Below the pieces are notes generated by a model. That model was not told the origin of the DNA. It saw nothing but the letters and a program-made list of their open reading frames with translations, and made no database searches. DNA of 20,000 bases from Chiloscyllium plagiosum (lineage: Eukaryota), in the NCBI RefSeq assembly GCF_004010195.1, contig NC_057718.1, positions 57,976,875 through 57,996,874 of the forward strand, in the 5' to 3' direction. The position numbers were made by a program, and so were the translations under genes. Numbering within the stretch: position 1 is the first letter of the stretch; every line of letters starts with the position of its first letter. This document shows positions 2,636-20,000 of this stretch, in pieces.

Positions 2636-2771
2636 AAGTCACTTTTGAACCTAGGATAGAGGAAAGGTTATTTATGAGCTAGCTGAAGATGACAGGTTCA
2701 AAGTTTGGGTGAAGATTTGTAGCTCGGGTGCTCATTGTTATGGTTCTGTTTGCCGAGCTGGAAATTTTTGT

Positions 2772-2812
2772 TGCAAACATTTCGTCCCCTGTCTAGGTGA
2801 CATCCTCAGTGC
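2772..2812 (-). ncRNA. Minimal type I hammerhead ribozyme motif (degenerate)
   Basis: Minus strand GCA-CUGAGGA-U-GUCACCU(AGAC)AGGGGAC-GAAA-UGUU-UGC: CUGANGA box, stem II, GAAA box, NUH triplet and a 3-bp stem I (GCA/UGC). Confidence 0.6.
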
Positions 2813-3320
2813 TTGGGAGCCTCCTGTGAAGCGCTTCTGTGGTGTTTCCTCCGGCATTTATAGTGGCCTGTCCCTGCCGCTTCCGGTTGTCAGTTTCAGC
2901 TGTCCGCTGTAGTGGCCGGTATTTTGGGTCCAGGTCGATGTGTTTGTTGATGGAGTTTGTGGATGAATGCCATGCTTCTAGGAATTCCCTGGCTGTTCTC
3001 TGTTTGGCTTGCCCTATAATGGTAGTGTTGTTCCAGTCGAATTCATGTTGCTTGTCGCCTGCGTGTGTGACTACTAAGGATAGCTGGTCGTGTCGTTTCG
3101 TGGCTAGTTGATGTTCATGGATGCAGATCGTTAGCTGTCTTCCTGTTTGTCCTATATAGTGTTTAGTGCAGTCCTTGCATGGGATTCTGTACACTACATA
3201 GTCTTGCTCATGCTGGGTATCGGGTCCTTCGTTCTGGTGAGTTGTTGTCTGAGGGTGGCTGTTGGTTTGTGTGCTGTTAAAAGTCCCAGTGGTCGCAGTA
3301 GTCTGGCTGTCATTTCAGAA
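2793..3320 (-). pseudogene. Penelope ORF C-terminus: GIY-YIG endonuclease domain
   Basis: SEMTARLLRPLGLLTAHKPTATLRQQLTRTKDPIP (frameshift) VVYRIPCKDCTKHYIGQTGRQL..IHEH..H..FDWNNTTII..R..REFLEAWH..NSIN, the typical VY-x-IPC-x2-C-x3-YIG-x-TGR signature of Penelope-like elements. Confidence 0.88.
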
Positions 3321-3850: not shown

Positions 3851-4610
3851 TTCTTCCCTTTCAGGGGGTAAAAAGGTGGGCCCTGTATAGACTGCTGCTG
3901 CACACCGTCCACCTCTTCTCCCTCATCCACCGTCCGGACACGCCTTGGCATGCCCATTTGCCACCGGGCGGTGGGGATCCCCAGTGGAGGGCTCTCTACG
4001 TGGGAGACCTCCCCCTTTCTCTCGGGGATCTGGGGTGGAGGGTGCTGCACGCAGCAGTCCCCTGTAACCGCAGATTGCGGTGGTTCACGGACTCCCAGCC
4101 CAACTGCTTGTTCTGTGGCGCTGTGGAGTCCGTGGACCATGTATATATTGGGTGTGGGCGTTTGCACTCCCTCTTTGATTTTCTTAAAAACCTCCTCCTC
4201 TGCTTTTGGTTGCACTTCAGTCCCACGCTCCTGATCTTTGGGCACCCGGTACGGAGGAAGGAGGGCTGGTCTGAAGACCTCTTCGTGGGTCTGCTCCTGG
4301 GCCTGGCCAAACTGGCCATCAACAGGTCCAGGCAGCGGGCCGTGGAGGGGGTCGTTAAGGCCGACTGCCTGCCCCTCTTCCGCGGTTACGTTAGGGCCCG
4401 AGTGTCCTTGGAGAAGGAGTACGCGGTGTCGACCAACACCCTAGAGTTGTTCTGGGAGAGGTGGGCGCGGCAGGGAGTGGAGTGCATTATTTCTCCCTCC
4501 AACTCTATTTTGATTTAGTCCCTCCCCTCCCCTTCACTGTTTAGATCACATAGCACTGCCCTTTGAGGTGAAGGGCAATGTTTGTCACTGGCCAGCCGGG
4601 TGTTTTCCTA
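3851..4610 (+). mobile_element. Tx1-clade LINE fragment B (ORF2 C-terminal zinc-finger region and partial 3' UTR)
   Basis: Starts immediately after ATAAACAGGA (3841-3850). The frame is open to the stop at 4518 and includes CLFCGAVESVDHVYIGC (CCHC) and ...ECIISPSNSILI*. The 3' UTR is cut at ~4610 where the next copy begins. Confidence 0.92.
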
Positions 4611-4739
4611 TTGTGAGTGTATGTGCAAGGACTCTCCTTGAAGGGGACTATCCCTGGACCAGCTGCCCTACAGAGAGAGGAAGGAAGAAAGAAGACGGAG
4701 AAGAAGAAGAGACCAGCACTCCCAGACTTGCCTCAGCTG

Positions 4740-5245
4740 TTGCTGCTTGGGGCCTACCTCACCTCTGCTGCCTGGGACTTGCCTTGGGGCCCCTCCCAGG
4801 ACCTCCACCACTGCCACTGCTGAAGGCCCACCTCCACTGCTGCTGCCTGGGACTCAATTTTGGGACTGCCTGGGACTTGCCTTGGGGACCCTCCCCAAAC
4901 AGGTCTGCCCCCTCACCGCTGCGACCAAAGGCCTACCTAGAACTTGCCTGAGGCTTGCCTCCACTGCTGCCGCTGCCTGAGACTCGCCTTGGGTCCCTCC
5001 ACCACAACTGCCTGGGACTCAATTTTGGGGCTGCCTGGGACTTGCCTTGGGGACCCTCCCCAACAGGTCTGCCCCCACCGCCGCGACTGAGGGCCAACCT
5101 AGGACTCGCCCGAGGCCTGCCTCTACTGCTGTTGTCGCTTGAGGCCTGCCTCCTCCACCGCTGCCTGGGACTCGCTTTGGCCCCTCCCTACAACCTCCAC
5201 CACTGCTGCTGCCGGAGGCCCACCTCCGCCGCCGCTGCCTGGGGC
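4740..5245 (+). repeat. Tandemly repetitive 5' UTR of Tx1 copy 1
   Basis: Many CTGCCTGGGACT(T/C)GCCTTGGGG modules; a ~165-bp duplication starts at 4843 and 5008 (CTGCCTGGGACTCAATTTTGGG...AACAGGTCTGCCCC). Related modules occur at ~16060-16335. Confidence 0.8.
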
Positions 5246-5268
5246 TTGCCAATATCCAGCAGCAGAGT

Positions 5269-7278
5269 ATGGCGAGCCCGAAGGTCACTGTGGGCGGGAC
5301 ACATTTGCCCGTCGACCCTCTGGAGGTTACGGCCCAGAGGGTCGTGATCTCTAACGTCCCGCCCTTCATTGCCAGCGAGCTCCTTCTCCCCCACCTTGCC
5401 ACCCTGGGGGAGATCCGGTCAGGGGTCCAGCCGCTCCTGCTCGGTCTGAAGGACCCCGCCCTCAGACACATCTACTCCTTCCGACGCCAGGTATTTATTT
5501 GCCTGGCCCGGGAGGAAGTCACCGAGGGCAATTTTACCGTCCTCCACGAGGGCGTGGCCTACCGCGCCTTCCGGACGGCGTGCGGTGCCACCTGTGCCAT
5601 GAGGTGGGGCACATAAGGAAAAACTGCCCCACCCAGAAGGCTGCCCCAGCCCGTGCCAATGGCTGATGGTGGTGCCGCCGCACACACTCCCCCTCCCTCG
5701 AAGTCAACACCACAGGCCCCGGCACCGAAGCCAGAGGCTTCCAATACTTCAGCCTCTGGCAGGGAGGGGGGTGAGCGTCCGGCTGGCCAGAAGGCGCGGA
5801 AGAAGACGCGACGCGTCAAGCCTGCCCACGGGGAGACCACCCTATCCCCTTCCCCGACACCTAGCCCACGACCAGCCCTGCCCCGGCACGACAATGCCCC
5901 TGCGGCTATGCCAGCGTCGCCCCGGTGTGGGAACCCTGACCCTCAAACCCCCGAAACCGTGCCTGATCCTGACCCCACACCCACTCCCCACCCCGATAGA
6001 GAAACCCCTCGGGATTCAACGCCTGCCCCTGGCAATGCAACACCTCGCCCGGGGGCACACGAGCCCGAGCCATGCCCAACCCAGCCACGCCCTGGCACTA
6101 ACCTGGGGGGAACCACTGCTGCTCCACCTCTTGCAGCGACCGTGTTTCCAGGCCCCGGAGCGGGAACTGGGCCCCTGCCCCTCCCTGCCCACCCTCACCT
6201 GATAAACCGGGGGCGGGGCAGGGCAGGAAGCGACACAGCTGGCCCTCCCCACCCTGGCCATGCCCCCTGTCTTCCCCCAGCCATTCGTATTCCGGGAAGG
6301 GCTGGGGGGAGGGACCTCGGGCCCCATGACCACCGAGGCGGGCGGGGAGGAGAAGGCCTATAAATTCCCCCTGGTCTCTCTGGGGAAGAGGCACCGGCCC
6401 CTGGAGGGGAGAGACACTCCAGCAGCGCGCTGGCGGTGCTGCCCCTCTCCGGGGGACGAACCAACGGTGTCCCTCGACTGTCCCACACCGTGGCCTGACT
6501 TACCAAAACCTCCAGGGGCTATAGCAGGGCCTCCTGCTGCCTTGACTCCTCCGGCCCCTGGGGAGGACCTCAATAACCACAAGGGCCGTGGTGCGGGCGA
6601 TGACGGAGGACCCTCTGCTGGGTCGTCGAGGGGAGGAGGGTGTTATCCTCGCTCCTCCCTCCCAGACTGTTTTTTCCGGGGGCCTTGGCCCTGGGGGATG
6701 ACCTTTTCCTGGGGGATGACCTTTTCCCCGAGGAGCCAGGCGTCCCGGTGTCGGGAGAGGAGCGGGGCCCCGAGCCTGTGCCGCCCGATGACCCGAACCC
6801 GGGGCGTTCTGGGAAGGGGTGCGCCGAGGAAGGTACTGTCGGTGACCCTGGGGGTGGGGTCGCCGGGGGTTTGAGGCCGGTTGGCGGCGCCAGACCAGCC
6901 CCCATCCTCTCGGTGGGGGAGGGGTCGGTGACCGAGGGTGACCTCCTGGAGGAGGGTTCGGGATTGGTGGCGGACACCGGGAACGACGCGGACTCCGTCT
7001 GCAGTGACATTTTTGAGTCCCAGGCTCCCCCCACCGATCTCCCCCTCATCCCCCTCGAGGAACTCCGGGAATTTGTCGAGGAAACTCGGGGTCGCCGGGA
7101 TAGAACCCAACTGGCGCTCGACCGCTGGAGCTCTTTCGAAAAAGTTTACTGGTCGGCCCACACTGCCCGCCAGGTGCCTGGGCTCGACATTAATGAGCGA
7201 AAGTGAGTCAGGAACTTCCTGGGGGCACTCCTGGTGAGGGCGAGGGACTTCAGTGCCCCTCCCTCGTCCTCCCTGTAA
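5269..7278 (+). pseudogene. Tx1 ORF1p (RRM-like N-terminus, CCHC zinc knuckle, long Pro-rich region), disrupted
   Basis: TVGGTHLPVDPL..RVVISNVPPFI..LLLPHL..LGEIRS..LRHIYSFRRQV resembles Xenopus TX1 ORF1. An alternative frame at ~5580-5631 gives VRCHLCHEVGHIRKNCP. N-terminal deletion, frameshifts and a premature TGA at 7204. Confidence 0.88.
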
Positions 7279-7332
7279 ATATACAGATAGGTTTGTTAAT
7301 TGTACTGGTGGTGGTTGCACAAAGCTTCCGAC

Positions 7333-10300
7333 ATGGAGACGACTATAGCCAGCCTCAACATCAACGGCAGCAGGGAGTCGCAGCGCAGATTCCAGACCCT
7401 CTCGGTCCTTCGGGACGGGAGGTATGCGGTGTGCTTCCTGCAAGACACCCACACTACCCCGGGAGATGAAGCCACCTGGCTCCTGGAGTGGCGATGGGGG
7501 GGGTCGACATGAGTCACCTCACCCGCAGATCTGGCGGGGTGGCTATCCTGTTGGCCCCGCATTTTCAGCCGGAGATCTTGGGGGTCAGGGAGCCTGTGCC
7601 AGGCCGTTTGCTTCACCTGACGGTTCGGCTGGGGGCCGCGGTGCTTCACTTGGTGAACGTCTACGCTCCCCTGGCCGGGCCGAGGCAAACGAGCTTCTTC
7701 AGAGAAGTGTCCGCTCATCTCGCTTCCATCGACGAGAACCAGTGCGTCGTCCTCGGGGGAGATTTTAACTGCGTCCTCGAGGGCAGGGACCACGGCGGTG
7801 CCCGCAATGGCTGGGCGTCGGGGAAGAGGTTGGGGGACTTGGTCAAGTCCTTCGACCTGGTGGACATCTGGCGGAATCTCCATTCCGACTCCATCGCCTT
7901 CACCTTCATGAGGGCTGGGGTCGGAGCATCCAGAATCGACCGCCTGTACGTTTCGCGGGCATACGCCTTCTGTTTTCCGAAGGCCTCCACGCGGCAGGTG
8001 TCGTGCACGGACCACCACCTGGTGTGGGCGGAACTCCTTCCTTTCGGCGCCAGGCTCGGCTCCGCGTACTGGCACTTTAACAACCTGCTGCTGGAGGACG
8101 AGCGGTTCCGGGACTCGTTCCGTCATTTCTGGGCCGGCTGGAGAAGGAAGCGGGGAAGCTTCCCCTCCCTGAGGCTTTGGTGGGACATGGGCAAGGCTCA
8201 CGTCCGCGTCTTCTGTCATGTGTACGCGAGGGGGTCGATGAAGAGGCGGATATCCAGGATCGGGGAGTTGGAGAGGGAGTTGCTCGACCTGGAGTCACGC
8301 CTCGGTCAGCCTGACGCGGACCCGGCCCTGCGCGGGGCGTACGAAGAGAAGGCCGTGCTCCGGGACCTGCAGCTCGTCGGGGCGCGTACGTGAGGTCGCG
8401 GATCCAACTCCTCCTGGAGGCGGCTCCCCCTTCTACTTGCTGGAAAAAAGGCGTGGCACCCGTCAGCAGCTCCTTGTGCTGCTGGCCGACGGCGGGTCCC
8501 TCGTCTCGGATCCGGAGGGCATCAGGGCCCACGTCCAAAACTATTACACGGCTCTGTTCTCTCCGGATCCGTCCAGCGAGGATGCTCGCAGAGTTCTGTG
8601 GGAGGACCTGCCGCAGCTCAGCCCGGAGGACGCCGGAAGGCTCGACGCTCCCGTCACTTTAGAGGAGCTGACCGGCACCCCCAACCGGCTCTCGAGGAGC
8701 AAAACCCCGGGGCTGGACGGGCTGACTGTGGAGTTCTTCAGGGCGCTCTGGGGCGTCCTGGGGAGCGACTACGCACAGCTCCTGGGGGAGTGTCTAAATG
8801 CCGGAGAGCTGCCCCTTTCTTGGCGCAGGGCGGTCATCGTCCTGCTGCCAAAGAAGAGGGACCTTCGTTCTTTAAAGGACTGGCGTCCGGTCTCCCTCCT
8901 CAGCACGGACTACAAAATCTTTGCCAGGGTGTTGTCTTCTCGCCTGGCCTCCGTGCTGGCCCAAATGATTCACCCGGACCAGTCCTACACGGTCCCGGGC
9001 CGGAGGATACACGATAACGTCCACCTGGTCTGGGACCTGATCCATTTCTGTCGACGGGCTGGTCTGCCGAGCGCCTTCCTGTCTCTCGACCAGGAGAAGG
9101 CGTTCGACAGGGTCGATCACAAGTACCTGCTCGGGACTCTGCAGGCATTCGGGTTCGGGACGCAGTTCGTCGCCCGGATCCGACTTTTGTACGCCGCCGC
9201 AGAGTATCTGGTTAAAGTTAATGGGTCCCTGATGGCGCCCCTTTGCTTCGCGAGAGGAGTGCGTCAAGGCTGCCCCCTGTCCGTCCAGCTGTATTCCCTG
9301 TGCGTGGAGCCTTTCCTACGCCTCTTGCGGAGGAGGTTGTCGGGGCTGGTTCTGCACGGCGCGGGCACAGGGGTGGTCCCCTCGGCCTACGCGACGTGCT
9401 CCTCACTTTCACCGACCCGGCTGACATCCAGAGAACGTTGGTCGATTTTTCTTCTGGGACAAAAAGATGCACTGGGTCACTGCGCAGGTTCTGAGTCTCC
9501 CTATTGAGGAGGGCGGTCAGTCGCTGGTGTGCGTCCACACCCAGGTCGCGACATTCCGTCTTCAGACCTTGCGGCGATACCTTTACGTCGAGACTCCTCC
9601 TAGGTGGTGCGCCCTGGCGACGTATTTTTTTTTCCGCCAGGTGCGTAACCTCAACTACGACACGCAGCTCCTGTTCGTCGACCGTGACGGTTTGGAGGTC
9701 GCCCTCAAGACGCTGCCTGTCTTTTACCAGGACCTGATCACTGTCTAGAACATGGTCGAATCGCGTCGCGCCTACCCTCCGGCTGGAGTAGCGGCTGTCG
9801 TCAGGGAGCCGTTGCTCAGGAATCCGCACCTCCATACTCACTGGTTCGATTGGCTGTCGGAGGGGAGGGCTGTGGCGGTGAGGGTGACCAGGGTCAGGGA
9901 CGTGCCGGGGACCTGGGCTGGACGCTGCCGCAGGACATAGCGAGCAGGGCAGCGGTAAACGTCTGGTACGTGGCCACCGCCATCCGACGCCTTAAAACGG
10001 CGGTGCTCGGACCCGACATAGTGCACCAGTTGGAGGAGGCTCAGCTGTGCGGTAGGATCCCATCTGCGCTCACCCCAACCCAGACGGAATTTCACTTTGG
10101 CCCCAAGGTCCCGTATTTCCCGCGGGAGCCTGTGCCCCACGACCTGAGCCGCCTCCAGAATTTTAATTTTGTCTCTTTCAAGGATATAAAAAGGCAGGCC
10201 CTGTATTGACTGCTGCTGCACACTGTCCACCTCTTCTCCCTCATCCACCGTCTGGACACGCCTTGGCGTGCCCATTTGCCACCGGGCGGTGGGGATCCCC

Positions 10301-10837
10301 AGTGGAGGGTGCTCTACGCAGGAGTCCTCCCTCTTTCTCTCGGGGATCTGGGGTGGAGGGTGCTGCACGCAGCAGTCCCCTGCAACCGCAGATTGCGGTG
10401 GTTCACGGACTCCCAGCCCAACTGCTTGTTCTGTGGCGCTGTGGAGTCCATTGACCACGTGTATAATGGGTGTGGGCGTTTGCACTCCCTTTTTTGATTT
10501 TCTGAAAAACCTCCTCCTCTGCTTTTGGTTGCACTTCAGTCCCGCGCTCCTGATCTTTGGCCACCTGGTACGGAGGAAGGAGGGCAGGTCAGAAGACCTC
10601 GTAGTGGGTCTGCTCCTGGGCCTGGCCAAACTGGCCATCAACAGGTTGAGGCAGCGGGCTGTGGAGGGGGTCGTTAGGGCCGACTGCCTGCCCCTCTTCC
10701 GCGGTTACGTTAGGGCCCGGGTGTCCTTGGAGAAGGAACACGCGGTGTCGACCAACACCCTGGAGTTGTTCAGGGAGAGGTGGGCGCCGCAGGGAGTGGA
10801 GTGCGTTATTTCCCCCTCCAACTCTATTTTGATTTAG
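7333..10837 (+). pseudogene. Tx1 ORF2p (APE endonuclease, reverse transcriptase, C-terminal zinc finger), disrupted
   Basis: EN: IASLNING, CFLQDTH, GGVAIL, VNVYAP, LGGDFNC, SRIDRLYVS, TDHHLV. RT: KTPGLDGLTVEFF, WRPVSLLSTDYKI, SLDQEKAFDRVDH, RGVRQGCPLS. YADD is broken at ~9388 with a downstream deletion. C-terminal CLFC..H..C motif. Confidence 0.95.
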
Positions 10838-11038
10838 TCCCTACCCTCCCCTCCCCTTCACTGTTTTGATCACATAGTATCGCCCTTTGATGTGAAGGGC
10901 AGTGTTTGTCACTGGCCACTCGGGTGTTTTCCTATCTTCCTGGTGGTGGAAATCGAATAAAGATTGGTGCACTTTGTGTCTCTCACTGTGTCTCACACCT
11001 GCACACACACACACCATGGGTGCTGGGGAAAAAATAAG

Positions 11039-11061
11039 CACTACCGCACTTAGGTGGTAGT
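11039..11061 (+). other. 3'-terminal stem-loop of the Tx1 family (representative of 8 copies in the window)
   Basis: Consensus CACTACCGC-A(C/G)TTAG-G(T/C)GGTAGTG, a 9-bp stem with 6-nt loop just upstream of the A-rich tail. Also at 3751-3774, 11232-11255 and five minus-strand positions in 12430-13820. Confidence 0.8.
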
Positions 11062-11125
11062 ATGGGAACAAAAAAAAGAGGAGTTTGAATAAAGATTCAT
11101 TTAAAAAAAAAATAAACAGGAGTGT

Positions 11126-11341
11126 TCAACACCCTGGAAAAAAAACAAACCAAAAAAAAGATTGGTGCACCTTGAGTCTCTCACTGTGTATCACACCTAC
11201 ACACACCATGGGTGCTGAGGGATAAAATAAGCACTACCGCAGTTAGGCGGTAGTGTGGGGTTTAATAGAGAGGAAAAAAAAACAGAAGTTGAGGAGGACA
11301 CTGCTTATCACTGGCCACTCTTCCGGGTGATTGAAGAAAAA
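11126..11341 (+). mobile_element. Patchwork of short Tx1 3' fragments and A-rich linkers
   Basis: After ATAAACAGGAGTGT (11112-11125): CAACACCCTGGA (ORF2 scrap) plus an A run, a 3' UTR copy at ~11157-11262 with hairpin, a TCACTGGCCACTC scrap, then ATATAAACAGGA (11342-11353). Confidence 0.85.
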
Positions 11342-11353
11342 ATATAAACAGGA

Positions 11354-11545
11354 TTCTGGATTAGTGGTGCTGGAAGAGCACAGCAGTTCAGGCAGCATCA
11401 GAGGAGCAGTAAAATTGACGTTTTGGGCAAAAGCCCTTCATCAGGAATACAGGCAGAGAGTCTGAAGAGTGGGGAGAAAGTAACATAGAGTACAATAGGT
11501 GAGTGGGGGAGGGGATGAAGGTCAGTGTCGGGGGGTGGGGTGGGC
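11354..11545 (-). mobile_element. Penelope-like 3' end/pLTR, inverted arm
   Basis: Reverse complement of ~11905-12106 with an internal deletion; carries a hammerhead-like core at 11414-11448 and runs into the assembly gap. Confidence 0.7.
11414..11448 (-). ncRNA. Minimal hammerhead ribozyme motif, core mutated
   Basis: Minus strand CUGAUGA-A-GGGC(UUUU)GCCC-AAAA-CGUC; GAAA has become AAAA. Confidence 0.55.
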
Positions 11546-11827: not shown

Positions 11828-12142
11828 CTCCTCTCTGACCTATCACCTTCATCCCCACCCCATTCACCCATTGTACTCTTTGCTACCTTGCCCCACCCTC
11901 CTCCCTGACCTATTACCTTCATCCCACCCCCATTCACCTATTGTACTTTATGTTACTTTCTCCCCACCCTCCTCTCACTTATCTCTCCACCCTTCAGGCT
12001 CTCTGCCTGTATTCCTGATGAAGGGCTTTTGCCCAAAACATCAATTTTACTGCTCCTCGGATGCTGCCTGAACTGCTGTGCTCTTCCAGCACCACTAATC
12101 CAGAATCTGGCTTCCAGCATCTGCAGTAATTGTTTTTACCTG
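11828..12142 (+). mobile_element. Penelope-like 3' end/pLTR, direct arm
   Basis: Pyrimidine-rich tandem units (CTGACCTATYACCTTCATCCC..CCCCATTCACCYATTGTACT x2), then ATTCCTGATGAAGGGCTTTTGCCCAAAACATC and a tail ending ...TTGTTTTTACCT. No coding sequence is visible, so the class assignment rests on the ribozyme motif and the inverted architecture. Confidence 0.7.
12011..12046 (+). ncRNA. Minimal hammerhead ribozyme motif, core mutated
   Basis: CUGAUGA-A-GGGC(UUUU)GCCC-AAAA-CAUC against the canonical ...GAAA-CGUC; both changes fit CpG decay. Confidence 0.55.
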
Positions 12143-12300
12143 ATATAAACAGGACATTGAGTCTCTTCAGTTTAGGGGACTGACTCTGTTACAGTCAGTG
12201 TGTTACTGTTACTTTCTGCTTCTCTTTTTGGGAGGGGGAAACCTGATTCCTGAACTGGCTGAATTATTTAGCCAGTTTGCTAACTGGCATTCCTTTTTAT

Positions 12301-14268
12301 TTATTTATTTATTTATTTATATATTTTTTTTCCAGGGTGTTGGTGGACACCGCGTGCTCCTTCTCCAAGGACACCCGGGCTCTAACGTAATCTCCTGTTT
12401 ATATATATATACTTTTTTCTTTTTTTTTTAACCCCCACACTACCACCTAAGTGCGGTAGTGCTTACTGGCATTCCTTTTTTTTTAGTGGAAGACACAAAG
12501 TGCACAAATGTTTATTCAATTTCCACCACCAGGAAGATAGGAAAACACCCGGGTGACCAGTGACAAACACTGCCCTTCACATCAAAGGGCAGTGCTGTGT
12601 GATCAAAACAGTGAAGGGGAGGGTAGGGACTAAATCAAAATAGAGTTGGAGGGAGAAATGATGCACTCCACTCCCTGTGGCGCCCACCTCTCCCTGAACA
12701 ACTCCAGGGTGTTGGTCGACGCCGCGTGCTCCTTCTCCAAGGACACCCGGGCTCTAACATAACCGCGGAAGAGGGGCAGGCAGTCGGCCCTAACGACCCC
12801 CTCCACGGCCCGCTGCCTGGACCTGTTGATGGCCAGTTTGGCCAGGCCCAGGAGCACTGGCATTCCTTTTTTTCTTTTTATAGGAAAAACACCCGGGTGG
12901 CCAGTGACAAGCACTGCCCTTTCTCCTGTTTATTTTTCTTTCTTTTTTTAACCCCCACACTACCACCTAAGTGCGGTAGTGCTTATTACATTCCTGTGTA
13001 TATATTTTTTTTTTTCTCAAATTCCCACTCCTGTTTATATATATATTTTTTTATTTTAACCCCCACACTACCACCTAAGTGCGGTAGTGCTTATTTTATC
13101 CCCAGCACCCATGGTGTGTGTGTGCAGGTGTAAGACACTGTGAAAGACACAAAGTGCACGAATCTTTATTCAAATTACACCACCGGGAAGATAGGAAAAC
13201 ACCGGGTGGCCAGTGACAAACACTGCCCTTCACATCAAAGGACAGTGCTGTGTGATCAAAACAGTGAAGGACACTCCTGATTATTTTTTTTTTTTCAAAT
13301 TCTCCAGATTATTTTTTTTTCTCTTTTTTTTTCCAGATTATATTTTTTTTTTTCTTCTTTTTTTTTGTTTTAACCCCCACACTACCACCTAAGTGCAGTA
13401 GTGCTTATTTTATCCCCAGCACCCATGGTGTGTGTGTGCAGGTGTAAGACACTGTGAAAGACACAAAGTGCACGAATCTTTATTCAAATTACACCACCGG
13501 GAAGATAGGAAAACACCGGGTGGCCAGTGACAAACACTGCCCTTCACATCAAAGGACAGTGCTGTGTGATCAAAACAGTGAAGGGGAGGGTAGGGACTAA
13601 ATCAAAATAGAATTGGAGGGAGAAATGATGCACTCCACTCCCTGCGGCGCCCACCTCTCCCTGAACAACTCCAGGGTATTGGTGGACACCGCATGCTCCT
13701 TCTCCAAGGACACCCGGGCCCTAACGTAACCGCGGAAGAGGGGCAGGCAACACTGGGGAATTTATTTTTTTTTTTTTTTTTTTTTCTTTACCCTACACTA
13801 CCACCTAACTGCGGTAGTGCTTATTTTATCCCCAGCACCCATGGTGTATGTGTGCAGGTGTGAGACACAGTGAAAGACACAAAGTGACATTCCTGTTTAA
13901 ATATTTTTTTTTCCAAATTCCACCACCAGGAAGATAGGAAAACACCCAGGTGGCCAGTGACAANNNNNNNNNNNNNNNNNNNNNNNNNNNNNNNNNNNNN
14001 NNCAGTGCTGTGTGATCAAAACAGTGGAGGGGTGGGTAGGGACTAAATCAAAATAGAGTTGGAGGGAGAAATGATGCACTCCACTCCCTGCGGCGCCCAC
14101 CTCTCCCTGAACAACTCCAGGGTGTTGGTGGACACCGCGTGCTCCTTCTCCAAGGACACCCGGGCTCTAACATAACCGCGGAAGAGGGGCAGGCAGACGG
14201 CCCTAACGACCCCCTCCACGGCCCGCTGCCTGGACCTGTTGATGGCCAGTTTGGCCAGGCCCAGGAGC
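12301..14268 (-). mobile_element. Minus-strand concatemer of about 9 short Tx1 3' fragments flanked by a 15-bp direct repeat
   Basis: Units at approx. 12332-12390, 12430-12464, 12491-12855, 12880-12921, 12950-12987, 13058-13269, 13371-13750, 13789-13885 and 13913-14268. ACTGGCATTCCTTTT flanks both sides (12283-12297 and 14269-14283). Confidence 0.92.
13964..14002. other. Assembly gap within a Tx1 3' UTR copy
   Basis: Run of N; the flanks are collinear with the other 3' UTR copies. Confidence 1.
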
Positions 14269-15029
14269 ACTGGCATTCCTTTTAGTGAGGACTGATTGTT
14301 AAACTCCTGATGCACATAATGTGTTTCAGGTGTAACTCAGTTCTCATTAGGGGATTGTTGTTTCACTGGCTGGTTACAGCCTGTGTTATACTTTTTTTTT
14401 ACTTTTGAGAAAGGACCATGTTATATTTGTGGTAGGGCTTAGCCCATGGACTCAAGTTTCCTTTGTTTTTTGTATGTGTCCTCACTGTTTTTGGTGTTTG
14501 GACTGAGCCCTTGTGGAAGACATACATTTTACCAGAGGAGCTGTTCCTGTGGGGAGGCCTGGGCCTGTGTGTGTGCTGGGAGGTTAGCACTTGTATCCTG
14601 GAGTTTGGATTAAACCCCTGTGAGTTAACTGCACATGTACTATGTTCCTGTGAGTGGGCCTGGTTTTCCAAGGCTGGGCCAGGACTCCATGGAGACTGAA
14701 TACCTGTGCGCTGTGCATTTGCTGCCTTCAGGAGTGAACTCTGCCCTCGGTTGGGGACCCTGCTTTTTATTGGTGGACTCTGCAGTTTGGAGTGGACTCC
14801 ATTTTGGACAATGCACCTTGCAAACTGGAGTGGACTCCATTCCTGGGAATGGACTCTATATTTTGAAGACTCTATATTTGGACTGTGTACTAGAAAGGAC
14901 TCTGTTTGTTGGTAACTAACTGTCATATGGTTTGTTGGGGTTATCACCTGCACTGTCTTGAATGTCCCTGGGTCTGGCAGGTCTTACCATGAGCTGGGAG
15001 GCTCATGGGTCATCCTGAAAGCTGTCACC

Positions 15030-15545
15030 CCAAGAGCCGGAGGGTGAGTAGGCCATCCTGTGAACCTGAAGGTTTGTAGGCTGTCCCGAAAGCCGGAGGG
15101 AGGGTAGGCCATTCTGAGTGCTGTCGTCCCAAGAAGGGGTGATCTGGATGGGCTGTCCTAGAGGTGGTCAGAAGGTGTCTGAGCAGCTGAGAGCCAGAAG
15201 GCACGTAGGGGCAGGCTGAGATCTAGAAGGCTTGTGGGATACCCTGCACACCTTCGTCCCAGGGAAGGGGGACGGGCTGTCCTAGAGGTGGCTGGAAGGT
15301 GTGCCAGGCTAGCCCACTGGCTGGATGATGCATCGGGGTGGGTGAGAGCCCAATGGTACGTAGGGCAGACAGAGCCAGAAGGTGGGTAGGCCATCCTGAC
15401 TGCTGTCACACTGGGCGGGTACTGGGGCGGGCTATCCTAGAGGTGGTTGAAAGGTGTTAGGGTGGACAGAAAAAAGACAGAAAGAGCATGGGGTGGACCA
15501 AGAGCCATAGGGGCGGGCTGCTTTAGAGTGGTCGGAAGGTGGGAG
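15030..15545 (+). repeat. Degenerate G-rich modular repeats in an unassigned segment
   Basis: GGGCTRTCCTAGAGGTGGYYRGAAGGTGT-like units at ~15150, 15274, 15429 and 15515; AGCCRGARGG..GTAGGCCATYCTG at ~15035, 15091 and 15373. Confidence 0.7.
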
Positions 15546-15805
15546 GGACGGGGGCTTGCTGGGTCTGTATTGTCTGCTCTTTCCATGTAACATGATTGTC
15601 TCATGTACAAATGTCATTGTTGCTGTCTTTTCATATTTGAAACTGGGATTTGTTGTTTGTCCTCCATTCCCTGTTCCCTGTAAACTGGTTGAACGGTAGG
15701 GTTTGGGGCCTAGCTTTGCTGTTCCTCCCCCTTGTAAAATTATTGTTGTATACAGCTGTAAATGTTACTGTTTTTTGTAAACTGTTTTGGATTTTATTTA
15801 ATAAA

Positions 15806-15824
15806 ATATAAACAGGAGTGTCAG
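15806..15824 (+). other. Junction/target motif ATATAAACAGGAGTGTCAG preceding Tx1 copy 2
   Basis: Longest plus-strand instance of the motif found at about 14 insertion junctions in the window. Confidence 0.8.
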
Positions 15825-16396
15825 ACATCCTGTTCTTTCTGAGCTGGCTCTTGAGGGAGCTGGACCAGTGTGTGTGAAGGACTCTCCTCTTGATTTGCTT
15901 CAGGAGAAGGGGGAACTGATGCTGGGACTGGCTGGCTCACAGCCAGTGTGGGAGAAGAGAAAAGGAAGAAGAGTTAGACAGAAGGAGGTGAGAGTTCGGA
16001 GGCCTGGGCCTGTGTCTGGTGCTGCAGCCTTGGTTTTGCCTACAGCTGGCCCAACTGCTGCTGCTGCCTGAGGCCTACCTCCATGGCTGCTGCCAGAGCC
16101 TCACCCAGGTCAAGGGAGTGTTGCTGCTGCCTGGGGCCCACTCCCACTGCTCATCTCTGGGATCCACCTCACTGTTGCTACCTGGGACTCACTTTGGGGC
16201 CCCTCCCAGGACCTCTAGACTGTTGCTGCTAGAGGCCCATCTCCACCACTGCTGCCCAGGACGCACTGCTGCTGCCTGGGACTTGGCTTTGGATCATGCC
16301 AGGACCTCCACCACTGCTGTTGCCTGGGACCTCTAATGGACTCCTGTCACACCTGGTTCCTGGGGCCTGTTTCCACCAGCAGCAGACAGAAAAAGT

Positions 16397-18343
16397 ATGG
16401 TGAGGCTGAAGACCGCAGGACCCAGCCACACCTATGCTGGGGTAGCCGCTGCCTTTGGCTTAGCTGCTGCAACCCCAATCCCCTTCAGGCACCTAACTAA
16501 ATGCCTGGGGCTAAAGGCCTATCCCCAGCCCAACATGACCATCGAGGCCTGCAGTAAGGCCATGGCTAGTGTGGTTGGCCCACTGGCCATCGCTGCAGCC
16601 AGGATGTATGGGAAGGCTGTATTTTTCCTCGAGACCGAGCAGGCGGTCCACCTAGCCGTGGAGAGGGATCTCACTGTGGGTGGGACACATCTACTCATTG
16701 ACCCTTTGGAGATTACGGCCCAGAGGGTCGTGATCCCCAACATCCCGCCCTTCATTGCCAGTGAGCTCCTTCTTCCCCACCACAACACCTTGGTGGAGAT
16801 CGGGTCGGGTGTCCAACCGCTCCTGCTTGGTCTCCAGGACCTTGCCCTGCGGCATATTTATTCCTTCTGACGCCAGGTGTTCATTTGCCTGGCCCGGGAG
16901 GAGGTCAGCGAGGGCCCGATAACCCTCTTCCACGAAGGTGTGACCAACTGCATCTTCTGGATGGTGTGTGGTGCCACCTGTGCCGCGAGGTGGGGGCACA
17001 TAAGAAAAAAACTGCCCCACCCAGAAGGCTGCCCAGCCCAGCACGATAATGCCCCCGCGGCCGTGCCAGCCTCTCCCCGGCGCGGGAACCCTGACCCCCA
17101 AACCCGTACCTGATCCTGGCCCTGCAGCACCCACTGACCCCCCCACACAACCCCTGCCCCGTTACAGAAACTCCTGGGGCTTCAACGCCTGCTACTTGCC
17201 CGGGGGTCCCTGAGCCCTTGGCACTACCTGGGGGAAACCACCACTGCTTTCCCTCCTACAGCAGCTGTGTCTCTGGGCCCCGGAGAGGGAACTGGGCCCC
17301 TGCCCTGCCCACCATCACCTGATAAACCAGGGCGGGGTAGGAAGTGACACAGATGGCCTGCCACACCCCCAGGCAATAGGATTCTGGGAGAAGCTGGGGG
17401 GAGGCACCTCGGACCCCATGATCACCAAGGCGGGTGGGGAGGGGTAGGCCCATAAACTCCCCCCTGTCTCTCTGGGGAAGAGGCGCCAGCCCTTGGAGGG
17501 GAGAGACATGCCAGCGGCACTGGCCCTCTCCAGGGCATGAGCCTATGGTGTCTCTTGCCTGTCCCACACTTGGGCCTGACCTGCCGGAATCCCCAGGGAT
17601 TACAGCAGGACCTCCTGCTGCCGTAATTCCACCGGCCCCTGGGGAGGACTTTAACAACCACGAGGGCCACAGTACAGGTGACGACAGTGAACTGTCCGCT
17701 GGGTCGTCGAGCGGTGGAGGGGAGGAAGGTGTTATCCTCACTCCTCCCTCCCAGACTGTTTTTCTGGGGGCCTTGACCCTGGGGCAGGACCTTTTCCCCG
17801 AGGAGCCGGGCGTCCCGGTGGTGGGAGAGGAGCGGGGCCCCGAGCCTCTGCCGCCTGACGACCCGAACTTAGGGCATTCTGGGAAGGGATGCGCCGAGGA
17901 AGGGACCGCTGGTGACCCTGGGGGGTGGGGTCGCTGGGGGATTGAGGCCAGTTGGCGGTGCTGGACCAGCCCCCACTCTCTCAGTGGGGGAGGAGTCTGT
18001 GACCGAGGGCGACCTCCCAGAGGAGGGTTCAGGATCGGTAGTGGACACTGGGGATGACGCGGAGTCTGTCTCCAGCGACATTTGAGTCCCAGGTGCCCCC
18101 CACCGATCTCCCCCTCATCGCCCTCAAAACTCTGGGAGTTTGTCGAGGAAACTGAGTCGCCGGGATAGAGCCCAATTGGCGCTCGACCGCTGGAGCTCCT
18201 TCGAGAGAGTCTACTGGTCGGCCCAGGCTGCTCACCAGGCGCCTGGGCTCGATGTCAATGAGCGAAAGCAAGTCAGGAACTTCCTGGAGGTGCTCCTGGT
18301 GAGGGCGAGGGACTTCTGTGCCCCTCCCTCGTCCTCCCATTAA
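16397..18343 (+). pseudogene. Tx1 ORF1p, copy 2, disrupted
   Basis: FRHLTK..MTIEACSKAMASVVGPLAIAAARMYGKAVFFL..TVGGTHLLIDPLE..NIPPF resembles the Xenopus TX1 ORF1 N-terminus. Stop at 16868-16870; knuckle CHLCREVGHIRK at ~16972-17007; deletion at ~17040; further frameshifts. Confidence 0.88.
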
Positions 18344-18387
18344 ATGTATATAGTTTTTAACTGTACTGATTGTACAAAGCTTCCGAC

Positions 18388-20000
18388 ATGGAGACAACTA
18401 TAGCCAGCCTCAACATCAACGGCAGCAGGGAGTCGCAGCGCAGATTCCAGACCCTCTCGGTCCTTCGGGACGGGAGGTATGCGGTGTGCTTCCTGCAAGA
18501 AACCCACACTACCCCGGGAGACGAAGCTACCTGGCTCCTGGAGTAGCGAGGGGTGGTCTACATGAGTCACCTCACCCGCAGATCTGGCGGGGTGGCTATC
18601 TTGTTGACCCTGCGTTTTCAGCTGGAGATCTTAGGCGTCAGGGAGCCTGTGCCAGGCCGTTTGCTTCACCTGACGGTTCGGCTGGGGGGCGCGGTGCTTC
18701 ACTTGGTGAACGTCTACGCTCCCCTGGCCGGGCCGAGGCAAGCGAGCTTCTTCAGAGAAGTGTCCGCTCATCTCGCCTCCATCGCCGAAAGCCAGTGCGT
18801 CGTCCTCGGGGGAGTTTTAACTGCGTCTTCGAGGGCAGGGACCACGGCGGTGCCCGCATTGGGGAGGAGGTTGAGGGACTTGGTGGACGTCTGGCGGAAT
18901 CTCCATCCCGACTCCATCGCCTTCACCTTTGTGAGGCCTGGGGTCGGAGCGTCCGGAATCGACCGCCTGTACGTTTCGCGGGCGTATGCCTCCTGTTTTC
19001 CGAAGGGCTCCACGCGGCAGGTGTCGTGCACGGAGCATCACCTGGTGTGGGCGGAACTCCTTCCATTCGGTGCCAGGCTCGGCTCCGCGTACTGGCACTT
19101 TAACAACCTGCTGCTGGAGGACGAACGGTTCCGGGACTCGTCTTGTCGTTTCTGGGCCAGCTGGAGAAGGAAGCGGGGAAGCTTCCCCTCCCTGAGACTA
19201 CGGTGGGATGTGGGCAAGGCTCACGTCCGCGTCTTCTGTCAGGAGTACGTGAGGGGGTCGACAGAGTGGCAGAAATCCAGGATCGGGGAGTTGGAGAGGT
19301 AGATGCTCGACCTGGAGTCACGCCTCGGTCAGCCCGACGCGGACCCGGCCCTGGGCGGGGCGTACGAAGAGAAGGCCGCGCTCCGGGACCTGCAGCTCGT
19401 CGGGGCTCGGGGTGCGTACGTGAGGTCGCGGATCCAGCTCCTCCAGGACCTGGACTGTGGCTCCCCCTTCTACTCGCTGGAAAAAAGGCGTGGCACCCGT
19501 CAGCAACTTCTTGTGCTGCTGGCCGACGGCGGGTCCCTCGTCTCTGATCCGGAGGGCATCAGGGCCCACGTCCAAAACTATTACACGGCTCTGTTCTCTC
19601 CGGATCCATCCAGCGAGGATGCTCGCAGAGTTCTGTGGGAGGACCTGCCGCAGCTCAGCCCGGAGGACGCCGGAAGACTCGACGCTCCCGTCACTTTAGA
19701 GGAGCTGACTGGTGCCCTTGACCAGCTCTCGAGGGGCAAAACCCCCGGGCTGGAAGGGCTGACTGTGGAGTTCTTTAGAGCGTTCTGGGGAGCGACTACG
19801 TACAGGTCCTGGGAGAGTGTCTAAATGCCGGAGAGCTACCCCTTTCTTGGCGCAGGGCGGTCATCGTCTTGCTGTCAAAGAAGGGGGACCTTCGTTCTCT
19901 AAAGGACTGGTGTCCCGTCTCTCTCCCTCCTCAGCACGGGCTACAAAATCTTCGCCAGGGTGTTGTCTTCTCGCCTGGCCTCCGTGCTGGCCCACATGAT
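18388..20000 (+). pseudogene. Tx1 ORF2p, copy 2 (APE endonuclease and RT N-terminus), disrupted and partial
   Basis: METTIASLNING..CFLQETH, TAG at 18544, GGVAIL, VNVYAP, IDRLYVS, KTPGLEGLTVEFF; frameshifts present. Confidence 0.94.

Follow-up and report, generated by a model that had tools for sequence, protein, structure and literature searches.

A Tx1-clade 3′-end array in Chiloscyllium plagiosum with linkers common to other loci, likely stitched from several parent copies

In L1 3′ transduction the flank of the donor is copied after the tail, and the source is traceable. Within the Tx1 clade, families that prefer LTRs have already been published (PMC4494074). The crocodilian elements Tx1-8_Crp, Tx1-4_AMi and SINEU (Kojima 2015, PMC4494074) prefer LTR retrotransposons and form tandem copies around the target site duplication (TSD). 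The sections of that paper cited here ascribe 5′ extensions of crocodilian Tx1 to template jump or transduction, and propose transcription driven by the flank. The R2 reverse transcriptase (RT) jumps between templates in vitro (PMC4117753), and double template switches are rare chimeras in the cited parts of two reports (PMC2104539, PMC13174262).

We analysed a stretch of 20,000 nt of the Chiloscyllium plagiosum genome (contig NC_057718.1, positions 57,976,875 to 57,996,874), referred to as the window, whose coordinates are used throughout. It contains two long copies of the element:

4560..11068, plus strand: decayed near-full-length Tx1 copy (reference), endonuclease at 7470-8390, RT at 8242-9504
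15808..20000, plus strand: second Tx1 copy of full-length type, 5′ head repeating LTR sequence from the TATA box on

An APE endonuclease, an RT and a C-terminal zinc knuckle are encoded by these decayed copies. Pfam matches in the window Tx1 copies are Exo_endo_phos, RVT_1 and zf-RVT, the last just below the cut-off, and the endonuclease region matches L1 ORF2p structures. The RT region (P0027) is 59% identical to Xenopus Tx1L ORF2 (YTX2_XENLA) over 81% of the query; its best matches, mostly unnamed turtle proteins, show 52-64% identity. By sequence identity of the RT, the element is assigned to the Tx1 clade. Genome-wide, a 21-nt pattern from the 3′ end of the family gave 2,355 exact matches.

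Sampling by position along contigs C1-C2 yielded 73 Tx1 loci, 64 of them with a readable 5′ flank. The U3 of an LTR-like repeat of ~240 bp lies immediately upstream in 26 of these 64 (automatic calls, about three of them doubtful), and a TSD was detected at 47. This U3 carries CCAAT and TATA motifs, and the insertion TSD includes the TATA box. At L242 and L253 the LTR, with TG...CA termini, is flanked by 5-bp TSDs without mismatch. Upstream of the LTR at L237 there is an Integrase_H2C2 match under the cut-off (E=0.0024), and its retrotransposon may be a Gypsy element. A 30-nt pattern of the LTR target gave 409 exact matches, and all 25 that were viewed lack the window Tx1 family in the locus. 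Full-length Tx1 copies have at their start the sequence of the LTR itself, beginning at the TATA box. In their 5′ head (window 15808-15890, plus strand) the LTR stretch between TATA and a predicted initiator, both included, is present again; an inserting copy could thus restore the promoter it disrupts. At several off-target sites (L020, L012, L026, L136, L163, L176, L180, L288) the TSD resembles a TATA box and CCAAT stands 25-45 nt upstream; enrichment of CCAAT across non-LTR sites was unconvincing (6/23 vs 29/230). At L081 and L125 a tRNA-like sequence follows a canonical linker with an identical junction, possibly a SINE on Tx1 machinery.

Multi-piece loci make up 52 of the 73 loci sampled. 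Pairs of pieces with the same Tx1 start are present in 28 of these 52 arrays, against 6.8 in shuffles (maximum 13), and 70 of 245 tailed ends are 3′-truncated. Canonical-like linkers follow 150 of 374 A-tracts within arrays and 3 of 121 outside, and are therefore not due to chance; the common ones are TATA-region variants of the target LTR family. Of 23 insertions at non-LTR sites, with unrelated TSDs of their own, 8 also contain imported canonical linkers. Counts of foreign linkers are the revised ones, the automatic count, inflated by tail interruptions, having been discarded. Mixed tailing was considered for the G-rich tails (289 G, 175 T and 32 C in 3,311 letters), which ageing explains equally well. 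Arrays are normal for the window Tx1 family, and the multi-donor array is real as family behaviour and mostly real at the window.

Elsewhere in the window, an inverted pair of a common repeat (11340-11480 and 11980-12110) flanks an N gap, and a Tx1 stack terminates at 11352 in one arm of the pair, with a canonical-like linker. A decayed ORF without Pfam match lies at 2690-3250 (minus strand); we take its motif to resemble the GIY-YIG endonuclease of a Penelope-like element.

The array itself (12283-14283, minus strand, ~2 kb) is a Tx1-clade LINE 3′-end array, present in the assembly as originally described. Its features are as follows, piece coordinates being counted back from position 11068, where the reference copy in the window has its 3′ end:

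14269..14283, minus: local TSD, 5′ copy; the host is the 5′ part of a ~1.7-kb repeat, antisense, of which empty sites were seen
14003..14269, minus: piece A, Tx1 3′ end -458..-192, by alignment
13964..14002, no strand: assembly gap of 39 N inside the array, from the sequence
13885..13963, minus: piece A2 (to -113), A9 tail and linker TTAAACAGGAATGTCA (13885-13900); entire junction inherited, 9 loci
13766..13884, minus: piece B (-99..end) and tail, by alignment
13750..13765, minus: foreign linker ATAAATTCCCCAGTGT; source search without result
13370..13749, minus: piece C (-384..end); rare haplotype in common with D and locus L091
13243..13392, minus: 150-nt block of C end, tail, ATAATCTGG, tail, ATAATCTGGAGAATTTG, tail, ATAATCAGGAGTGT and D start; identical on contig C39
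13271..13284, minus: linker ATAATCAGGAGTGT; the identical junction is a primary insertion at an LTR TATA box on C16
13056..13270, minus: piece D (-214..end), by alignment
13018..13038, minus: linker ATAAACAGGAGTG and 8-nt scrap from -121; junction with 24 exact genome matches
12948..13001, minus: linker ATACACAGGAATGT and piece E (-36..end); 10 exact matches, 9 loci
12880..12933, minus: linker ATAAACAGGAGA and piece F (-174..-134); exact 23-mer unique to the window
12856..12870, minus: local TSD, second copy, from the sequence
12485..12856, minus: piece G (-458..-82); start as in A, 6 differences in 267 nt
12465..12479, minus: local TSD, third copy, from the sequence
12428..12465, minus: piece H (-34..end), by alignment
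12331..12402, minus: linker ATAAACAGGAGA(TT) and piece I (-364..-305); hot spot of microhomology with 33 matches, one mismatch allowed
12283..12297, minus: local TSD, 3′ copy, from the sequence

The local TSD is the 15-mer AAAAGGAATGCCAGT, whose four identical copies bound three segments. The array holds ten aligned Tx1 3′-end pieces of 32-382 nt, all in a single orientation, two scraps of 7-8 nt, and A-tails. Nine foreign linkers, each after an A-tail, sit in two of the three segments, eight of them in one segment; ATAAACAGGAGA occurs twice. The hallmarks of target-primed reverse transcription are present: the 15-bp TSD in four copies, an A-tail, and 5′ truncation with microhomology. Pieces A and G follow the same-start pattern of the family, and between C and D 2 of 224 nt differ. 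One template copy is the probable source of A, A2 and B, because the A2-B junction is inherited. The original prediction had described about nine micro-insertions within a single TSD unit. Its outer repeat and internal copies at ~12465 and ~12856 were confirmed, all four being unchanged, and the array is indeed multi-piece, but the single unit resolves into three TSD-bounded segments. All five linker types named there are present; the list lacked those at 13750-13765, 13332-13341 and 13303-13312.

The array site lies antisense within the 5′ part of another repeat of ~1.7 kb, and has 220 genome-wide matches at up to one mismatch. Among 30 viewed copies of that repeat, none has this Tx1 piece directly at the array-type site; one is occupied there by a different insert, and another has a small one 12 nt further along. 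The sampled locus L179 ends in a TSD identical to that of the array. The site is therefore a minor, re-used target. Both ends of the host repeat (window 12140-15820, plus strand) lie at the same LTR TATA target, and no ORF was recognised in it. It forms tandem stacks of its own, with pairs 1.7-1.9 kb apart, and its fragments appear as modules in Tx1 arrays. The host repeat is likely a non-autonomous partner of the window Tx1 family.

The linkers were traced by genome-wide searches with eight junction patterns, the ninth linker lying within the block shared with C39. Targeted searches were needed because a random sample of 416 junctions from 120 loci was too thin (9 of 309 clusters in at least two loci, several being overlapping loci). 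For seven of the nine linkers, exact copies attached to the same Tx1 position exist at other places in the genome. The D junction has five exact matches at four loci and zero variants at one mismatch. At the C16 locus this junction lies behind an intact LTR U3, whose own TATA region carries the ATC variant of the linker and is repeated after a tail. On C5, on C39 and in the window it is preceded by a tail, in three distinct contexts besides the primary one. The block on C39 matches window 13243-13392 in 150 letters, including three tails and three linkers, at an unrelated site. Beyond the linker, the C39 copy agrees with the second C16 copy for 69 nt (background for such a run 0.9%), and with window piece D for 28 nt.

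The junction of A2, tail, linker and B was found at nine loci with identical upstream end and tail and varying neighbours. The nine non-window matches of the E junction all lie behind an A-tract, with at most 11 nt of upstream identity to the window and differing partners. Similarly, the nine matches of the scrap junction that were viewed, out of 23 outside the window, are all behind an A-tract, and a downstream variant carried by 13 of 157 sampled copies was found in five of the five sufficiently long (four loci). The I junction marks a hot spot of microhomology, for which many donors are possible, since six of the nine non-window loci viewed are primary insertions at the LTR. The donor search for the C linker gave 10 matches vs 6 in the control, and none of the nine non-window matches is near Tx1. 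The F junction was found genome-wide in the window only, by an exact pattern that includes a variant base and is thus a weak test. A degenerate ATAATC pattern (461 matches vs 171 in the control) was set aside. The TTAAAC linker as a local point change, one contig of run X5 reading ATAAAC, was dropped because the linker is present at nine loci.

A donor-type locus with a primary LTR insertion was seen for D, and for I as a hot spot; among the copies viewed, none was seen for the B, E, scrap, 129-copy or 6-copy junctions. As regards 3′ transduction, the C16 junction is a likely source for D, and identical siblings exist for B and the C39 block; these loci are at most candidates for the transcribed parent. 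The rare C/D motif has eight exact matches at six loci, twice per array in two arrays, and the haplotype is complete at one other locus, L091. The several donor loci proposed originally are thus supported by seven recurring linkers, one primary LTR donor-type locus and the A2-B junction at nine loci. The array linkers are target-site copies common to other loci, likely brought in RNA from parent arrays, and the array was likely stitched from RNAs of several parent copies and not from the local site alone.

Frequently recurring linkers usually retain their downstream piece, and the upstream partner varies at the A-tract. A junction from other loci, with 129 exact copies, has 12 kinds of upstream partner, always via an A-tract, at the 21 readable loci of 30 viewed, where its linker has no second copy in front of the partner. 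This junction doubles as the 5′ head of a full-length subfamily. In the full-length subfamily at window 4560-4660 (plus strand; also L188, L190, L204), the 5′ head contains the element's own 3′-UTR segment -187..-134. Crossover between this head copy and 3′-UTR -187..-134 would yield an internally deleted module of ~200 nt, the form of most viewed 129-copy junctions. A 6-copy junction, likewise from other loci, occurs at five loci with differing partners, and its 3′ ends diverge within 30 nt; L227 was not accepted as source of its linker, since L227's own TSD differs. Rare inherited linkers lie together in single arrays at L319 (three) and L300 (two), which hints at few dominant templates in one period.

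The original prediction had also invoked read-through RNAs as in R1, carrying the tail plus target sequence of their donor loci. This part needs correction, as the linker is not the 3′ end of such an RNA but travels with the downstream piece, and most new joins fall in the upstream A-tract. Unlike what R1-type priming implies, the linker is internal to the array, inherited with the piece behind it, and differs from the local target. The region 12871-14268 has the make-up of a chimera, with same-sense pieces of different templates, as modules from different loci, in one TSD pair. Continuous read-through and re-joining at A-tracts both occur, because whole junctions recur and partners vary. Judging from these sequences, the change of partner at the A-tract suggests that, besides read-through, templates are switched (or pieces re-inserted and joined by homology); a switch during one event and a later re-insertion via A:T pairing would leave the same structure.

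We propose that the array probably arose by three Tx1-clade insertions at one regenerated 15-bp target, with foreign linkers from parent-array RNA and templates likely switched at A-tracts and in shared Tx1 sequence. The cycle would start, as observed at sampled loci, with insertion mainly at the TATA box of the ~240-bp LTR, and the target site is rebuilt because the TSD contains that box. Re-insertion at the rebuilt TSD would account for the observed piling up of pieces, often with the same 5′ start. With an intact CCAAT/TATA promoter just ahead, truncated stacks may be transcribed too, and as the stack lies directly behind the promoter, the RNAs would hold internal tail-TSD-piece junctions. 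Such junctions, observed to be inherited, would reach new sites through RNA. There the linker would be copied into the preceding A-tract and the cDNA end would re-prime on another RNA, so that modules from several donors come to lie between two local TSDs. A single burst is favoured over hits spread in time, because rare templates occur twice within one array. More tentatively, the RT of this family may routinely join many short RNAs per insertion, re-priming at each A-tract, and scraps of 50-400 nt headed by former target sites may become heritable SINE-like modules behind promoters; we hold this broader reading to be possible, with the balance somewhat against it.

Nested 3′ transduction without any template switching, in which each segment is a continuous read-through RNA of an older array, would explain the junctions inherited whole with identical tails, such as A2-B at nine loci, the -53 junction at four sites and the C39 block. 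It would also fit the tails at L048, L143 and L153, which continue into LTR sequence, nearly to its poly(A) signal. As the only process it is unlikely. One linker-piece module has many upstream partners and no second flanking linker copy, and no locus examined has two window junction blocks in succession, a check that preceded the last 40 loci. Further, C and D share one haplotype around a block whose C39 sibling belongs with another, and this requires two further switches in shared Tx1 sequence, or an assembly misjoin.

Serial re-insertion is an equally improbable account; the modules would be separate events at the tail/TSD boundary, a T-tract pairing with the existing A-tail and hence leaving no new TSD. 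Re-insertion at the TSD is certain from its four copies, tandem arrays of R1 and SINEU-3 form likewise in the cited parts of the literature (PMC2718515, PMC4494074), and the same-start rule shows homology-guided 5′ joins. However, rare templates appear twice in one array, and the site is a minor target, at which eight independent hits are unlikely given that none of 30 copies viewed has this Tx1 piece directly there.

Some gap fillers work with 25-nt words. Gap filling may have pasted the C39 junction block between two passes over one real unit, C being equal to D. The exact identity, the overlaps of only 25 and 28 nt by which the C39-type block meets the window haplotype, and the near-identical flanks C and D are the pattern of a short-word misjoin, so this block could be one. 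An N gap lies within the array, whose order rests on the assembly sequence, and none of the contigs from four DNA-type runs spans it. The A2-B junction, apart from one difference, is contained in a contig of 84 nt, which may stem from any of the loci with this junction. The array is not confirmed by other samples, because 72% of its 31-mers also occur at other sites examined and the best run contains 61% of the sampled words. A young, polymorphic locus or a partial misassembly may lie behind this. As an explanation of the array, an assembly chimera is nevertheless improbable, slightly more so than the two foregoing accounts. The neighbours of other recurring window junctions diverge within 31 nt, a pattern that the pasting of a single contig could not produce, and the D junction stands in three after-tail contexts besides the primary one. 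Contigs of independent runs contain many piece-tail-linker-piece joints of the array type. Removing the block would take away one block, not the overall finding.

Mutation of the local TSD as the origin of all linkers can be rejected despite the AGGA that some have in common with it, since eight linker strings compared ungapped (the 10-nt linker at 13332 left out) differ from it at 6-8 of 15 positions while the four TSD copies are unchanged, and seven of nine linkers recur exactly elsewhere; the original view that the linkers are not duplications of the local site holds for these eight, and the matching of linkers to donors that it called for gave the correspondence described above.

In a single-cell poly(A) run, 482 reads of the Tx1 3′ end were found, nearly all sense, with poly(A) at the normal 3′ end. 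No RNA running into a linker was present among the listed loose ends of this oligo-dT library (~2% of one run).

LINE enzymes are known to switch templates only rarely, as a side reaction that yields chimeras of two or three parts; here multi-part products are the common outcome. With over 2,300 exact 3′ ends, and with parts whose tags identify their source sites, the family offers a large natural data set on first-strand restart and 5′ joining, and the linker tags let source copies be mapped without experiments. Work on concatemers in RNA-templated gene insertion, whether to study or to avoid them, has a candidate enzyme in the ORF2p of the family. If many RNAs are indeed joined routinely, each array would be a readable pedigree of earlier landing sites, and the element a natural multi-template writer.

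In the open literature we found no equivalent description of this combination at such frequency with traceable donors. Similar to the window element, Tx1L of Xenopus laevis has an APE endonuclease and RT and inserts into another mobile element (PMC4494074, PMC1919474). The window family differs in targeting an LTR TATA box, with many off-target sites, and the cited text on Tx1L makes no mention of multi-donor arrays. Crocodilian Tx1 and SINEU share the LTR preference and the tandem copies at the TSD; in the main text of that paper, however, the TSD shared by tandem copies is the local one, switching of templates is a minority event, and no position in the LTR is given (PMC4494074). Tandem R1 arrays of Drosophila are alike in re-insertion into a 14-bp TSD and in 5′-junction microhomology, but have the same local TSD between all copies, and the cited sections do not mention foreign linkers (PMC2718515). 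In R2 jumping and tripartite LINE chimeras the RT changes RNA in mid-insertion, as proposed for the window array, and the product lies in one TSD (PMC4117753, PMC2104539, PMC13174262). The published LINE chimeras are rare and, in the parts cited, have two or three parts, with one tripartite against 33 bipartite in Magnaporthe (PMC4117753, PMC2104539, PMC13174262), whereas the window family forms mostly multi-part arrays with joins in A-tracts. In contrast to L1 3′ transduction, the flank carried along is the donor TSD plus the next Tx1 piece, handed on as a module. Each of the ingredients is known; what is new is the tracing of donors and the inherited linker modules.
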